Origin: Alphaproteobacteria bacterium
GTDB taxonomy: Bacteria; Pseudomonadota; Alphaproteobacteria; Rs-D84
Assembly: GCA_017503725.1 (NCBI GenBank)
Contig: JAFVSL010000003.1
Span: 72,272 to 136,271, forward strand
Direction: 5' to 3'
DNA length: 64,000 nucleotides
Shown: positions 17,664-62,869 of the stretch, one piece after another
Position numbering within the stretch: the stretch's first letter is position 1
Layout of the letters: every line of letters starts with the position of its first letter
Notes under the pieces: model-generated
Databases searched by the model: none
Told to the model about the DNA's origin: nothing
Seen by the model: only the letters and a program-made list of their open reading frames with translations
Position numbers and translations under genes: made by a program

Positions 17664-17811
17664 TATAGAATGTAAACTCGCCAAGATGGCGAGTTTTTTA
17701 TAAAAGTTCGTAAATCGTCAAAACGGGGTTAGTTTTTAACCGCCAACTTACGAACTGGTGAACATATTGAAAATCCAATAAAATCCCGCCCGTTTGGGCG
17801 GTTTTTATTTT

Positions 17812-17887
17812 TGGCAGCCCCAACCGGATTCGAACCGGTGTTCTCGCCTTGAAAGGGCGGTGTCCTAGGCCTCTAGACGATGGGGCC
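17812..17887 (-). tRNA. tRNA-Glu (anticodon TTC)
   Basis: Minus-strand GGCCCCATCGTCTAGAGGCCTAGGACACCGCCCTTTCAAGGCG...GGTTCGAATCCGGTTGGGGCTGCCA. Confidence 0.9.
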
Positions 17888-47393: not shown

Positions 47394-47843
47394 ATGGCCA
47401 AGAATACGGAATATCAAACCAATGTCTTTACAATTGCGCACTATATTTTATTGTTTATGGTAACGGTTACCTGTGCCAGTATTGTTACGTGGCTTATTCT
47501 TGATCGATACAACACCCAAAAATTCAACAGTACAAATATAACGTATATTATGAATAATGATCCGTGTGTGAAACAAACCCGTGACGCGGTATCACGTATG
47601 TGGTCATTTAACCAGGAACTTATTCCCACGCGCTACAAAACGATTGCAGATGCATATTCCAATGATGCGGTTTTAACGCGAATAACCGGATATTGTGATG
47701 GTGTTCCATTTATGTGTCGCGCGGGCCAGTTGCGTCGCACCTGTGATCCGTGTGCAATTCGAACCGGTCGCCACCACGCAATGGAAATGCACATTGCCGA
47801 TATGATACGTGCCAATTGTGGGTACGATATTGATAAAAAATAA
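47394..47843 (+). CDS. hypothetical membrane protein
   Basis: One TM near N-terminus; Cys-containing C-terminal region. Confidence 0.45.
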   Translation: MAKNTEYQTNVFTIAHYILLFMVTVTCASIVTWLILDRYNTQKFNSTNITYIMNNDPCVKQTRDAVSRMWSFNQELIPTRYKTIADAYSNDAVLTRITGYCDGVPFMCRAGQLRRTCDPCAIRTGRHHAMEMHIADMIRANCGYDIDKK

Positions 47844-48086
47844 AACGGGCCCAAGACCCGTTTAAATTTATATGGCTTGTCATACGAAGCCTTGGCGAAG
47901 TATGGTCACCGTTGACAGGATTCCCTTGGGCTTGTGCCCTGCGGGGCATTCGTTAGCACTCGAACTTCACTGCGTTCGTTCTCGCTTACTCATTGTCGAA
48001 CCCGGCAACTGCGTTGCGATGTATCGAACCGACATACCCACTGATATAAATTAAAACGGGTACAAGACCCGTTTAAATTTATATGG
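47843..48086. repeat. tRNA-Pro-associated element: 33 nt direct repeats (47843-47875 and 48054-48086) flanking a 178 nt core
   Basis: Direct repeats AAACGGG(C/T)(C/A)CAAGACCCGTTTAAATTTATATGG. Core carries a partial copy of the tRNA-Pro 3' end (GAATCCTGTCA) and is homologous to 62563-62696. Confidence 0.6.
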
Positions 48087-48162
48087 TCGGGGTGACAGGA
48101 TTCGAACCTGCGACCCCTTGCACCCCATGCAAGTACTCTACCAGGCTGAGCTACACCCCGAC
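48084..48162 (-). tRNA. tRNA-Pro (anticodon GGG)
   Basis: Minus-strand GTCGGGGTGTAGCTCAGCCTGGTAGAGTACTTGCATGGGGTGCAAGGGGTCGCAGGTTCGAATCCTGTCACCCCGACCA. Confidence 0.85.
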
Positions 48163-48217: not shown

Positions 48218-48859
48218 ATGGTCTTTGGATTTATTTATGGAGATGGTATGTACAATAAAGAATTTTGGAATCGGGTTTATAGTGGCAGGGTTAAGCCGTG
48301 GCTACAAGATGATTTCGCACGCTTTATGATTGACAGTGTGCGCGACTATCTAAAACCAGAAAAGTCAATTATGTTGGATTATGGATGTGGAAATGGTGCT
48401 GTTGCGGCATATTTTAGAAATAGTGGTGCAATTGTTGATACGGCTGAAATTGCGGATGACATGGTTGCGTTGCTGCGTTCTACTTATTCTGGAACAAATG
48501 TGTATTCGGTTAATACACCATCAGATATTCCGCACAAACATTATTATGATAATGTTCTGTGCTTAAATGTTTTTCATCACATATCGCCCGAATATTGGGA
48601 TGTGTTTTTAGACCAGTTACACACATTGATAAAGCCAGGTGGTCGTTTAATTATATCTGGCTGGGATGATTCCGATTATTATCTAAATCAAAATAATAAT
48701 GTTGCCCTGGCCACCCAGTGTACCAGTTGGACAATAACATCCCTTGTCCGTCATTTTGTGCTGTCCCAATGGTCGCTGATTGATAATACGGTTCGTAAAT
48801 TCAAGTATGCGGGTTTCGAAGAACGTTCTATGCGCTTTTATTGTTTGGTTGCCAAATAG
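48218..48859 (+). CDS. class I SAM-dependent methyltransferase
   Basis: MLDYGCGNGAVAAYF motif I, acidic motif II DTAEIADDM. Confidence 0.65.
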   Translation: MVFGFIYGDGMYNKEFWNRVYSGRVKPWLQDDFARFMIDSVRDYLKPEKSIMLDYGCGNGAVAAYFRNSGAIVDTAEIADDMVALLRSTYSGTNVYSVNTPSDIPHKHYYDNVLCLNVFHHISPEYWDVFLDQLHTLIKPGGRLIISGWDDSDYYLNQNNNVALATQCTSWTITSLVRHFVLSQWSLIDNTVRKFKYAGFEERSMRFYCLVAK

Positions 48860-54596: not shown

Positions 54597-56726
54597 ATGA
54601 AAAAGATAGTTTTACTGACTTTTCGTTGCCTTGTGACATCCGTCGTGCTCGCGGTTGTTGGTGGTTCTGGTTCAATGGGTGGAATCATCACTGGATGTAC
54701 GGGGTATGACACTATGTTGAATTGTAACAGCACATCGGATCCCTATACGTGCTATTGGGGATATACGCGCAAATATACTGGTGGACAGCCGTCGTACAAT
54801 TGTTATGAATGTACCAATTTGCCATTGGCGGATAATATCCTGGTATCCAGTAATACAGAGACTCAACCTACAATTTCTTGGCTAACCGCTAAAACAGAAT
54901 ACGTTGACCCCTATGGCAATTATCGTGAATTTCCTAACGTGGATGGTTTTTGCCCAATTTTGGTTTCGTGTCCCGCCGGGTATGGATTAAAACTTTATAT
55001 AAACCCAAAATGCAATACGTTAAATGCGGTGTCAGACTGTCGTTATCAGATTAGTTGTGAAGAGTGTGCTATGGGAACATTTGATCGTGAAACCCGATTG
55101 GTGCGTTTATATGCGCCCAGCGCCCTTGAGGATTATGGACTGTATTACGTTCGTGGTCAGTTTGATGATATTGATGGGACCAGTACTTTTATACTAGATA
55201 ATACGGATATGGTTGACAGTAAAATATACGGCTGTGGCGCGTGTGGGGCTAATGCTCATGTAAATACAGATGGCAATAATTGTGACTGTGACGATGGATA
55301 CAGATACTATGATATTGCCGGTCGGGCGATCACCACAAATATTGGGGAACGCGATTGTGTGCCACGTACATACAAAATATATTTGAATACTGGTACCTCT
55401 GCATCCAGTAGCAGTCCGTATATAAACTATCGGCCCGGCACGGGATACGATTTAGATTTAGATGGTGTATACGGTGACGATGGGACCAGTTTGGATTCCG
55501 TTGTAACCGTTACAGTGCCCAAGCAAAATTTTACTGGTTGGTATTTTTGCCCAATGATTACTGGTATTGGTGCGACTATTTGTGGGAATCCAATGTGGTC
55601 AACAAATTCATTTAGCAACAGTGATGATATCATTACCACTTGTAACGGTATTACGCAGTGCAGTATAGACGAATATGATGCAATAAACTTATACAGACAA
55701 TATTCTTGGAAAACTTATACGGTAAAATATGCCGATGGTTCCAATAAAACGAAAACGTGTACATATAATTCAGACTGTAAGATTGATTATACACCGACAA
55801 CCACTATTCCCGGTGGTCAGTTGTTTAAAAACTGGACATATCCCGGTTTTGTGATAAACGTTGGTGATAACATCAAGACCATTGAACAATCGCAACCCAG
55901 TGAATTTAGCAGTAATCAGATTAGCCTTGGCGTCAGTTATACGGAATGTCCGGCCGGCTATTATTGTAAAAATAATGTTCAAACCGAATGTCCCGCGGGC
56001 CACTATTGCCCGGGCGAGACCGCAACCCCAATCCCGTGTGAGGGGGGATATTATTGCCCGGCAAAAAGTGAATCCCAAACAGAGTGTCCCGCGGGCCACT
56101 ATTGCCCGGGCGAGACCGCAACCCCAATCCCGTGCGAGGGGGGATATTATTGCCCGGCAAAAAGTGAATCCCAAACCGAATGTCCCGCGGGCCACTATTG
56201 CCCGGCCAATACCGTAACTCCAATCCCGTGCGATGGCGGATATTATTGCCCGGCAAAAAGTGAATCCCAAACAGAGTGTCCCGCGGGTCACTATTGCCCG
56301 GCCAAGACCACAACCCCAATTCCGTGCGATGATGGGGCATATTGTCCCGCCGGCAGTGCTGCCCCAAACCAGTGTCCCGGGGGGTACTATTGTTCGGAAA
56401 AAAGTTCGGAACCGATTCCGTGCGATGGCGGATATTATTGTCCCGCCGGCAGTGCCACCCAAACACCGTGTAATGTTGGGTATTATTGCCCGGTAAAAAG
56501 CGCCACCCAAACACCGTGCGATAGCGGCTATTATTGCCCAGCAGAATCCGCAGAAATGAAAAATTGTCCCGTTGGCACAACCAGTGATGCTGGACGTTCC
56601 GGTGTTGCCGGTGCCAAGGCCGCAACCGATTGCTATGTCAGTGATATGACCAAATTCAAAGACAGTGGTTTTAGTTTTACCCTGCCAATAACATCGGGAA
56701 CCGTGAAATACAAGGGCAGGGGTTAA
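54597..56726 (+). CDS. large secreted cysteine-rich tandem-repeat protein (GCC2/GCC3-like CPxGxYC repeats)
   Basis: N-terminal signal/TM; about 12 repeats of ECPAGHYCP(G/A)xTxTPIPC(E/D)GGYYCPAKSESQT; near-identical 90 bp DNA repeats 55940-56560. Confidence 0.7.
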   Translation: MKKIVLLTFRCLVTSVVLAVVGGSGSMGGIITGCTGYDTMLNCNSTSDPYTCYWGYTRKYTGGQPSYNCYECTNLPLADNILVSSNTETQPTISWLTAKTEYVDPYGNYREFPNVDGFCPILVSCPAGYGLKLYINPKCNTLNAVSDCRYQISCEECAMGTFDRETRLVRLYAPSALEDYGLYYVRGQFDDIDGTSTFILDNTDMVDSKIYGCGACGANAHVNTDGNNCDCDDGYRYYDIAGRAITTNIGERDCVPRTYKIYLNTGTSASSSSPYINYRPGTGYDLDLDGVYGDDGTSLDSVVTVTVPKQNFTGWYFCPMITGIGATICGNPMWSTNSFSNSDDIITTCNGITQCSIDEYDAINLYRQYSWKTYTVKYADGSNKTKTCTYNSDCKIDYTPTTTIPGGQLFKNWTYPGFVINVGDNIKTIEQSQPSEFSSNQISLGVSYTECPAGYYCKNNVQTECPAGHYCPGETATPIPCEGGYYCPAKSESQTECPAGHYCPGETATPIPCEGGYYCPAKSESQTECPAGHYCPANTVTPIPCDGGYYCPAKSESQTECPAGHYCPAKTTTPIPCDDGAYCPAGSAAPNQCPGGYYCSEKSSEPIPCDGGYYCPAGSATQTPCNVGYYCPVKSATQTPCDSGYYCPAESAEMKNCPVGTTSDAGRSGVAGAKAATDCYVSDMTKFKDSGFSFTLPITSGTVKYKGRG

Positions 56727-62433: not shown

Positions 62434-62524
62434 CGGAGACGTCGCATAGTTGGTCTAGTGCGCTACATTGGAAATGTAGTATACTCGCAAGGGTATCAAG
62501 GGTTCGAATCCCTTCGTCTCCGCC
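62434..62524 (+). tRNA. tRNA-Ser (anticodon GGA), type II
   Basis: GGAGACGTCGCATAGTTGGTCTAGTGCGCTACATTGGAAATGTAG-long arm-AAGGGTTCGAATCCCTTCGTCTCCGCCA. Confidence 0.85.
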
Positions 62525-62710
62525 ACAAAAATCAAACGCCCATTGTGGGCGTTTTATTTTTGTGCCGAAATCGGGGTTCGAACCCGGTAAAGCCACGACA
62601 GTGGCGTGGGTTCGACAATGAGTAGGTTTTGCAAACATAGTACAGCAAAACCGTCAGGAATGCCCCACAGCCCCGCCACTCGCGGGGCGAGGGAATACTT
62701 CGTCTCCGCC
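62525..62710. repeat. tRNA-Ser-associated element ending in a 14 nt direct repeat of the tRNA 3' end (CTTCGTCTCCGCCA at 62697-62710)
   Basis: Core 62563-62696 is homologous, in the same orientation relative to the tRNA, to the tRNA-Pro-associated core (shared ACTCATTGTCGAACCC, GGGGCATTC, GGGAAT). Confidence 0.55.
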
Positions 62711-62869
62711 AGGAATAATCAAAACCCCGACAAAATCTGTTGGGGCTTTGTTTTTAGGCGGATTCCAGCCACTTTTTCACCACAAGGTTACCAGTATGTA
62801 CAACGAAGTTATCAAATAATCGAATATTTGCACTGCTTACATACATTGCCCAAAACCATCGTGGCAATT

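Follow-up and report, generated by a model that had tools for sequence, protein, structure and literature searches.

Transfer RNA genes are classic landing sites of bacterial islands, and their attachment sites were reportedly classified by crossover position by Williams in 2002. To our knowledge, every integrase described so far acts on a single tRNA and is carried by its own element. Here, we analyse a 64,000-nt stretch of an alphaproteobacterial genome (GTDB Rs-D84; contig JAFVSL010000003.1, positions 72,272 to 136,271), referred to as the window, which carries two small related elements, one 3′ of tRNA-Pro(GGG) and one 3′ of tRNA-Ser(GGA). In elements that integrate at tRNA genes, the direct repeat runs from the T loop to a variable point past the CCA, and a displaced tRNA fragment marks the island ends (PMC4383910). 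In phage Ms6, recombination takes place in the T loop, and an altered attP core redirects the phage to the T loops of other tRNAs (PMC1762012). Elements are also known to accrete in tandem, and some that lie between attachment sites are non-autonomous (PMC5704250, PMC3146451).

Both window elements are members of a family of hairpin-rich modules without coding capacity, which is specific to one lineage and was seen only in the tRNA 3′ flanks of Enterousia-like gut Alphaproteobacteria. As in the T-loop class of tRNA-integrating islands and prophages (PMC4383910; Ms6, PMC1762012), a direct repeat of the tRNA 3′ end extends from the T loop to or past the CCA next to an intact tRNA, the same sites hold real islands, and the units stack in tandem. 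Unlike these islands, the family has neither integrase nor cargo in its ~100–190 bp, places one core at 15 tRNAs where an integrase normally has a single target, and has this core inside the T-loop copy instead of beside it. It also resembles cis-mobilizable elements (CIMEs) and their accretion (PMC5704250; Dehalococcoides tandem islands at ssrA, PMC3146451) in being non-autonomous and att-bounded, so that a recombinase would be needed in trans, and in forming tandem arrays of the kind that repeated integration at one site produces; CIMEs, however, are decayed kilobase-sized derivatives at one site, whereas the family is a tiny structured core at many sites. Overall, it is most like a miniature cargo-less tRNA-integrating element or a CIME, and departs from both in two defining respects, having no integrase of its own and more than one target. 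We know of no parent element for it. The literature that we searched yielded no description of tRNA-flanking mini elements or of Enterousia repeats, and the family is real and apparently undescribed.

The extent of the family was established with a motif scan of one genome per species, in which GGTTCGACAATGAG had to be followed, after a gap of 20–50 nt, by AATGCCCC. Note that the numbers of loci, motif hits and units in relatives are counted among the matches listed, so that totals are lower bounds. At least 119 loci in at least 84 assemblies match this exact-motif scan. The listed matches come from gut Alphaproteobacteria of ruminants, horses, birds and humans, either Candidatus Enterousia or unnamed, the sole exception among the listed loci being one evident chance match in a Poribacteria metagenome-assembled genome (MAG). 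A tRNA gene lies on the same strand within 400 nt upstream of 96 of the 127 motif hits, usually at 60–92 nt, and most other hits sit at a locus edge, are the second unit of a tandem pair or follow a degenerate tRNA 3′ remnant at an island end. The anchors comprise at least 15 isoacceptors for seven amino acids (Tyr-GTA; Arg-ACG, -CCT and -TCT; Gln-CTG and -TTG; Pro-CGG, -GGG and -TGG; Ser-GGA, -TGA and -CGA; Lys-TTT and -CTT; Val-CAC). A covariance model trained on 40 units recovers 136 units in the loci and, in the 64-kb window, the model from relatives matches the two elements and nothing else.

The same model finds no unit in viral contigs; two pattern scans of such contigs returned none or two hits, which had neither a covariance match nor a nearby tRNA, and a viral origin was discarded. 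No family of Rfam 15 matches the core at E values up to 10, and only tRNAs reach a curated threshold: the best sub-threshold overlaps score below 17 bits against curated thresholds of at least 43, and cover at most the 5′ edge of the Ser core, leaving the conserved Pro core untouched. Resemblances noticed by eye to hammerhead, tmRNA, Y-RNA-like and attC structures are supported neither by Rfam nor by motifs. Copies behind different tRNAs are more alike within one genome than between genomes (identity 0.73 versus 0.66). In one genome, identical units stand behind tRNA-Ser(GGA) and tRNA-Ser(CGA), which have their 3′ halves in common, and the identity spans the region from the tRNA variable arm to the tail; as far as the alignments go, this suggests recent spread or conversion. 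At one and the same tRNA, the core subtype can differ from host to host. Inheritance of the unit behind a particular tRNA is often stable within a host clade, and the Ser-GGA units share a derived AATAC change.

Read on the tRNA strand, a unit runs from the tRNA and its CCA through a palindromic terminator, a variable arm, GGTTCGACAATGAGTA, hairpin 1, GTYASGAATGCCCCRCAG, hairpin 2, SRAGGG and the tail to a second terminator, and measures ~130–190 bp with its terminator. The variable arm holds a T-loop-like motif (GGTTCGAAnCC or GAYGAGAACC) and often a small hairpin (GCAAC...GTTGC), and GGTTCGA precedes the conserved core of ~95 nt with its two covarying hairpins. The tail is composed of AATCC, the 3′ strand of the T stem, the 3′ strand of the acceptor stem, the discriminator base and CCA. 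The second terminator is frequently identical to the first, in which case the direct repeat reaches up to ~65 nt, past the CCA.

The tail copies the end of the tRNA behind which the unit stands. An exact copy (at least 12 nt up to the CCA, typically 14–20 nt) is present in 59 of the 84 tRNA-adjacent units and always begins in or just past the T loop, and most of the other units carry a mutated copy. Where a tRNA type varies among hosts, 43 of 44 informative tails have the variant of the tRNA next to them, and this match holds for near-identical units of different species (L015 versus L080; L numbers designate loci). On the other side of the core, the three bases to the left of GGTTCGA (tRNA positions 49–51) match the 5′ strand of the cognate T stem at 1.43 of 3 positions, a figure that falls to 0.72 of 3 when non-cognate tRNAs are compared (permutation p < 0.0002), and positions 46–48 to the left of the motif show no cognate signal. 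The left half of the tRNA copy decays, and the tail is kept. With T-stem bases on the left and the tail on the right, the core therefore lies inside the T loop of a ~28-nt copy of the tRNA 3′ end (about positions 49–76), and the module consequently ends in the T stem, acceptor and CCA of its own tRNA.

Two wider readings of the 5′ arm were tried and rejected: as a copy of the tRNA body it carries no cognate signal beyond the T stem, and as one strand of a tRNA minihelix, pairing with the tail like an acceptor stem, it matches 7.4 of 11 positions for cognate tails and 7.3 for controls. Closure of the core by a T stem is weakly above control (3.25 versus 2.89 pairs). In diverged tails (L003, L041, L046, L102, L020, L104, L036, L086 and window 47903–47922), it is mainly the acceptor segment that has changed (CCCCAA to GACCCG or GGCCGA, for instance, and CCCC to ACGGT), with the T-stem part and the terminal CCA retained; decay, hybrid sites or selection against identity could be the cause. 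Hybrid tails, considered as evidence of exchange between tRNAs, are suggestive, the library of tRNA ends being too small for a conclusion.

The two window elements fit this anatomy as follows.

48084..48160, minus strand: tRNA-Pro(GGG), anchor of element 1 (ARAGORN; Rfam tRNA, 61.2 bits)
48044..48083, minus strand: proximal terminator-like palindrome T1 of the Pro element, between tRNA and element (hairpin 48054–48074, on both strands; 18-nt arms 48044–48061 and 48067–48084)
48003..48043, minus strand: variable 5′ arm of the Pro element (T-loop-like GTCGGTTCGATAC at 48021–48033; small hairpin GCAACGCAGTTGC at 48005–48017)
47923..48002, minus strand: conserved core of the Pro element (GGTTCGACAATGAGTA at 47987–48002; hairpin 1 at 47955–47986; AACGAATGCCCCGCAG at 47939–47954; hairpin 2 at 47929–47938; CAAGGG)
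47903..47922, minus strand: tail of the Pro element, a mutated copy of the tRNA-Pro 3′ end (AATCCTGTCAACGGTGACCA; 11-nt exact repeat; 20-mer intact in L013)
47876..47902, minus strand: fragment of an unrelated small palindromic element (TACTTCGCCAAGGCTTCGTATGACAAG), shared with L013, with longer relatives in L021, L060, L090 and the L078 Gly–Tyr spacer
47831..47875, minus strand: distal repeat of the Pro element, comprising CCA, trailer and terminator (45 nt, 91% identical to 48042–48086; terminator-like hairpin 47843–47863)
62435..62525, plus strand: tRNA-Ser(GGA), anchor of element 2 (ARAGORN; Rfam tRNA, 59 bits)
62526..62567, plus strand: proximal terminator-like palindrome T1 of the Ser element (hairpin 62534–62554; 22-nt arms 62521–62542 and 62546–62567, 91% complementary)
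62568..62608, plus strand: variable 5′ arm of the Ser element (T-arm-like GGGGTTCGAACCC at 62573–62585; hairpin GCCACGACAGTGGC at 62592–62605)
62609..62697, plus strand: conserved core of the Ser element (GGTTCGACAATGAGTA at 62609–62624; hairpin 1 at 62625–62652; GTCAGGAATGCCCCACAG at 62653–62670; hairpin 2 at 62671–62687; CGAGGGAATA at 62688–62697)
62698..62711, plus strand: tail of the Ser element, an exact 14-nt copy of the tRNA-Ser 3′ end (CTTCGTCTCCGCCA; 62512–62525 = 62698–62711)
62725..62755, plus strand: distal terminator T2 of the Ser element (hairpin 62725–62745, then a T run)

What the initial annotation had read from the letters alone is confirmed, and was even understated, some details apart. 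The proposed homology is borne out by the covariance model, which places both elements in one family (Ser, 62609–62711, 98.8 bits, E = 1.3e-23; Pro, 47903–48002, 77.1 bits, E = 4.5e-18), and the two have the same orientation as claimed, each lying 3′ of its tRNA and on the tRNA's strand. The conserved blocks that they were said to share, GGGTTCGACAATGAGTA and GAATGCCCCRCAG, occur exactly twice each in the window, above chance (for GGGTTCGACAATGAGTA with up to three mismatches, 0.14 occurrences are expected), and the 14-nt tRNA end at the Ser element is exact. At the Pro element, the reported 33-nt flanking repeat is present, as the inner part of the 45-nt repeat, but its tRNA part is the CCA only, and the rest of this supposed integrase signature is trailer and terminator-like hairpin. 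The partial tRNA-Pro copy placed in the core exists as an 11-nt exact match (TGACAGGATTC, 47913–47923 = 48093–48103), the true copy being the mutated 20-mer at 47903–47922, which is intact as GAATCCTGTCACCCCGACCA, a perfect copy of the tRNA-Pro end, in the near-identical relative L013 (MAG SIG48). The Pro core does not start at 47876, since 47876–47902 is a piece of a different small element, and the GGTTCGA motifs, described as the loops of two hairpins, are T-loop-like and pair with each other, instead of forming hairpin loops, in the predicted centroid fold of the Ser element.

The Pro-element arm type recurs in relatives behind Gln, Pro, Ser-TGA and Val tRNAs, and the Ser-element arm is kept in every Ser-GGA unit of relatives. 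The T1 arms of the Ser element reach into the CGCCA end of tRNA-Ser, and the Pro element has four terminator-like sites where 0.7 are expected. The 27-nt piece TACTTCGCCAAGGCTTCGTATGACAAG (47876–47902, minus strand) comes from a second small palindromic family (CACTTCGCG...GCTTCGTGTGGC...GCCACA...), which stands directly after CCA ends in L021, L060 and L090 (after tails) and in the Gly–Tyr spacer of L078. The genes around both elements are ordinary or housekeeping: a ribosomal protein S4-like protein, CorA, a PHP-domain protein, a methyltransferase and an M48 peptidase. The window and L013 are near-identical downstream of tRNA-Pro and diverge totally ~45 nt upstream of it, where the window encodes a 213-aa S-adenosylmethionine (SAM) methyltransferase (48218–48859, plus strand); SAM methyltransferases also occur in the tRNA-array cassettes of other genomes. 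Elsewhere in the window, GAATGTCCCGCGG occurs twice on the plus strand (55986–55998 and 56178–56190, 192 nt apart) within a 709-aa open reading frame (54597–56726), and is probably an internal protein repeat unconnected with the elements.

Behind their tRNAs, units accumulate in arrays. Tandem units are found in L001, L036, L050, L052, L077, L099 and L100, relatives differ in having one or two units, and at least three other small cores alternate with the units at the same position between GGTTCGA and AATCC. Single-gene cassettes of 0.9–1.3 kb (1.0–1.4 kb with the preceding unit), all of which close with a degenerate copy of a tRNA 3′ end, encode among others SAM methyltransferases, a histidine phosphatase and an RNase T-like exonuclease. 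A separate AT-rich hairpin element of 85–110 nt, with ends ACGAGAATACACAATTAGAAAAATC ... GATTTTTCTTATTGTGTATCGAGG, splits tails at the T loop right after GGGAAT (L016, L018, L098, L112, L042, L055, L075, L076). In the window, TTTTCAATATGTTCACCAGTTCGTAAGTTGG follows the terminator of tRNA-Glu (17812–17887) at ~17735–17790 on the minus strand; it resembles TTTCTAAT..TTTCACCGAGTTCGAAAGTT, which opens single-gene cassettes downstream of relatives' arrays at many Gln and Tyr loci and has an inverted copy ~40 nt later, and may be a cassette promoter or operator.

Presence and absence can be compared at one site. The spacer between tRNA-Gly(TCC) and tRNA-Tyr measures 5–6 nt when empty (L056, L087, L097), 120 nt in L029, where a repeat beginning in the T loop flanks a 114-nt unit, and 196 nt in L002, L008 and L044, which have a second insertion. 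The 114-nt unit ends in a tRNA-Gly tail, and the filled and empty pair concerns this related Gly-type unit only. This spacer is a hot spot with five different small insertions of 25–190 nt (also in L038/L083, L073/L081, L078 and L084). Beside tRNA-Pro, a search for empty sites gave no record for the 158-aa neighbour, and a metagenome scan with the 213-aa methyltransferase returned only distant methyltransferases.

Islands integrate at the tRNA 3′ ends used by the family, which are genuine attachment sites. SIG48 carries the same two elements as the window, and its distance from tRNA-Pro to the Ser element is ~10.7 kb longer; its identity with the window starts at the last 8 nt of tRNA-Ser and continues through the terminator, element, tail and second terminator, with unrelated island DNA upstream. 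The island lying upstream of an unchanged element, the element predates the island and is therefore not its scar. Islands or prophage-like regions at the last ~8 nt of tRNA-Ser(GGA) are found in L069 (SIG48) and also in L010, L026, L032, L071 and L095; they carry ParB-like, terminase-like and serine-recombinase genes, with repeated TCCCTGTAAATTCCCTG motifs near their right ends.

We then consider what the conserved helices say about the nature of the unit. In hairpin 1, 90% of cells are paired versus 69.5% in shuffles, 299 cells are changed on both sides, a number reached by none of 500 shuffles, and the signal collapses once the pairing partners are slid. A short CCC/GGG helix becomes CGC/GCG and GGC/GCC in variant copies. 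G–U pairs make up 14 of 1421 cells and one-sided changes are nearly nil; an assignment of strand by G–U pairs was tried and showed no asymmetry, and the opposite strand folds equally well or better. Against shuffled sequence, the predicted fold of the Ser element stands out (z = −3.55), and that of the Pro element is no better (z = −1.0). At the window elements, no promoter-like site was found ahead of the arm. A small protein was also considered and rejected: hairpin insertions and deletions break every reading frame and the type-b hairpin has a stop, and the units are non-coding because these length changes disrupt all frames. The helices are therefore either selected or else templated as palindromes, and between an RNA and a DNA role we lean slightly towards DNA.

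A search for the enzyme that could move such modules covered ~1 Mb of loci and the window, iteratively and seeded with the integrase-like and serine-recombinase genes seen there. It returned four integrase-like genes, all near tRNA-Pro(CGG), and one unrelated serine recombinase inside an island. The four encode a conserved 335-aa integrase-like protein ~2 kb from the tRNA-Pro(CGG) arrays (L036 1959–2966, L086 801–1808, L004 2521–3525, L104 2545–3549). The L036 copy, the one scanned against Pfam, contains Arm-DNA-bind_3 and Phage_int_M with no catalytic domain detected; the protein may be a decayed or repurposed integrase.

Other classes of small elements resemble the family in part. Miniature elements derived from IS200/IS605 are small and non-coding, carry a hairpin near each end and insert after a fixed short motif without obvious target duplication. 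The family, too, has hairpins near both core ends, its junction GGTTCGA–core–AATCC would fit such an insertion, and its succession of scaffold, ~16–20 nt of locus-specific sequence and terminator recalls these elements and the guide RNAs of their TnpB nucleases; unlike in the miniatures, its hairpin sequences are not conserved and its locus-specific part duplicates sequence ~190 nt upstream. We know of no TnpA, TnpB or effector protein for the family, and neither TnpA (HUH) nor TnpB was recognised in ~8 kb around each copy and in the 64-kb window, no dedicated profile search having been made. A conserved core, a tRNA-identical tail and a TTCGA beside the target also recall TnpB/Cas12-like guide RNAs, but G–U pairs are scarce; a guide directed at an essential tRNA gene of the same cell would destroy its own host. 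Integron attC cassettes likewise form arrays of small units and single-gene cassettes at an anchor, with hairpin-defined variable sites that are mostly Watson–Crick paired; in contrast to them, the family lacks GTTRRRY/RYYYAAC sites by inspection (GTTCGAC is a misfit), has much longer unpaired conserved stretches and is anchored at a tRNA gene. No integron integrase was seen, and no integrase with a detectable catalytic domain in the ~1 Mb of loci, and we do not class the family with integron cassettes. Repetitive extragenic palindromic (REP) sequences and bacterial interspersed mosaic elements (BIMEs), Rickettsia palindromic elements and Correia elements (PMC2229807) are also short, non-coding, hairpin-forming and multi-copy and lie between convergent genes near terminators; unlike the family, they have no tie to tRNAs and no copy of a neighbour's sequence. 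As for classical miniature inverted-repeat transposable elements, the repeat of the family is tRNA-derived and varies from 14 to ~65 nt instead of having a fixed length, and arm–tail complementarity is at control level.

The most likely explanation is ordinary recombination. We tentatively favour a reading in which the units are non-autonomous modules that would be spread in trans by conservative site-specific recombination at the tRNA T loop and 3′ end and would stack in arrays; its recombinase, crossover point and direction of exchange are what we infer. Each event would supply the tRNA with a module-borne 3′ end and terminator and push the resident 3′ end to the far side of the module, where it would form the tail. 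Repeated events would pile up modules and small gene cassettes in tandem, and displaced tails would offer harmless landing pads, which would bring one core family behind many tRNAs. The repeat would run past the CCA because an excised module would carry the 3′ end and trailer of its previous locus. The initial annotation had opposed a miniature tRNA-targeting element to identical scars of excised islands and had proposed to look for copies at other tRNA 3′ ends, their absence elsewhere, together with the same sequence as ordinary trailer in relatives, being the outcome that would speak for old trailer sequence. Many such copies were found (about 138 further ones among the listed matches, in at least 84 assemblies), at no fewer than 15 isoacceptors and each ending in the 3′ sequence of its own tRNA, and the former alternative holds. 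Integrase-mediated insertion is plausible and fits the pattern, but the search of ~1 Mb around the copies gave only the four integrase-like genes and the unrelated serine recombinase.

Several observations weigh against recombination in trans. The core interrupts the T-loop copy (GGTTCGA–core–AATCC), where a simple attR would have the two halves adjoining, and a plain attP arm does not predict T-stem-like bases to the left of GGTTCGA. The tRNA integrases known to us serve one tRNA, and here there are 15. A double-stranded circle of 100–190 bp would be mechanically awkward, and the model leaves the near-exclusive Watson–Crick covariation of the two hairpins unexplained. Near-identical elements that each carry their own tRNA variant, as in L015 and L080, imply that continuing exchange or gene conversion is needed as well. 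Finally, no functional recombinase was found beside any copy in the ~1 Mb of loci and the window.

Alternatively, the core could be a single-strand-DNA miniature transposon, of the hairpin type derived from IS200/IS605 or like IS91, inserting just 3′ of GGTTCGA (or GTTC) without target duplication. Insertions into real tRNA genes would then be lethal, and survivors would be seen only in displaced partial tRNA copies left by earlier integrations. The core does lie exactly between the T-loop halves with cognate T-stem bases surviving on the left, has a hairpin near each end, keeps a constant orientation relative to the tRNA and pairs by Watson–Crick rules without strand asymmetry, as DNA hairpins would, and at least four unrelated cores use the one position. 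We nevertheless consider this unlikely: hairpin sequences vary freely among copies, which a transposase that reads sequence should not tolerate, different cores with different ends have one common target, and a second process is required for the partial tRNA copy at 15 tRNAs. The 5′ arm upstream of GGTTCGA is, moreover, conserved across tRNA types, and the travelling unit is therefore larger than the core. Somewhat less probable still is that the unit encodes a structured non-coding RNA, transcribed by read-through from the tRNA promoter, bounded by two terminators and needing a tRNA-identical 3′ end, which would act as a mimic or decoy of tRNA 3′ fragments or as a scaffold-plus-guide RNA, its spread to many tRNAs being secondary. 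Conserved unpaired motifs between helices that vary, the two-sided changes of hairpin 1, the switches of the CCC/GGG helix, terminators on both sides, the fold of the Ser element, broken reading frames and a tail that keeps the exact sequence of its own tRNA next to a decaying T-stem part are all in its favour; yet it has to face the absence of an Rfam match, the near absence of G–U pairs, an opposite strand that folds as well or better, the missing promoter-like site, arm–tail pairing at control level and the unremarkable fold of the Pro element, and it leaves tandem arrays and duplicated terminators unexplained. A variant to which we give little credence takes the core as an RNA scaffold and the tail as a programmable 3′ segment (14–20 nt of the neighbouring tRNA beside TTCGA); in this scaffold reading, tails track tRNA variants while adjacent bases decay because of selection on the RNA, which could guide a homing element or a partner nuclease or recombinase to tRNA genes, like a transposon guide RNA or bridge RNA, or could be a tRNA 3′-fragment mimic or decoy, for instance against tRNA-cleaving toxins or elements that recognise tRNA ends.

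Duplicated terminators would instead fit local duplication without dedicated machinery, replication template switching at the terminator and T-arm palindromes having duplicated the tRNA 3′ end and gene conversion having spread the core. In several families, the palindromic terminator is directly followed by an arm whose first bases are an imperfect reverse complement of the tRNA 3′ end, arm–tail duplexes are somewhat more stable for cognate pairs (−15.7 kcal/mol) than for non-cognate ones (−12.9 kcal/mol), and copies within a genome are more alike. This is improbable, though slightly less so than the scaffold variant, as it does not explain one ~95-nt core at the same nucleotide position of 15 unlinked sites, the Ser-GGA and Pro families show little or no inverted-copy signal, and the palindrome centre is not at the T loop. 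The least probable, and largely refuted, is that the units are scars of excised islands of one family or tRNA trailer that has long been inherited vertically. These tRNAs do serve as island sites, and inheritance at a given tRNA is often stable within a clade, the window and SIG48 sharing both elements; however, the same core with the same boundaries recurs at 15 tRNAs, copy number varies, core subtypes differ by host at the same tRNA, the SIG48 island sits upstream of an unchanged element, further copies exist elsewhere, and the Pro repeat is mostly trailer and terminator.

The finding is that of a protein-free module of ~100 nt behind 15 tRNAs, each with its own tail, in bacteria with genomes of roughly 1 Mb. 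A self-matching tail at many tRNAs is surprising and testable, whatever becomes of the mechanism that we infer for it. If a trans-acting recombinase moves the modules, it may recognise a generic T arm, which would be of interest to those in search of integration tools that can be retargeted; a unit that functions as an RNA would represent a new class, one reading out the tail of the tRNA beside it. The family can mislead the annotation of tRNAs, islands and terminators in these genomes, and its arrays form hitherto unrecognised hot spots at which genes are gained, in an uncultured group that is common in the guts of animals and humans.

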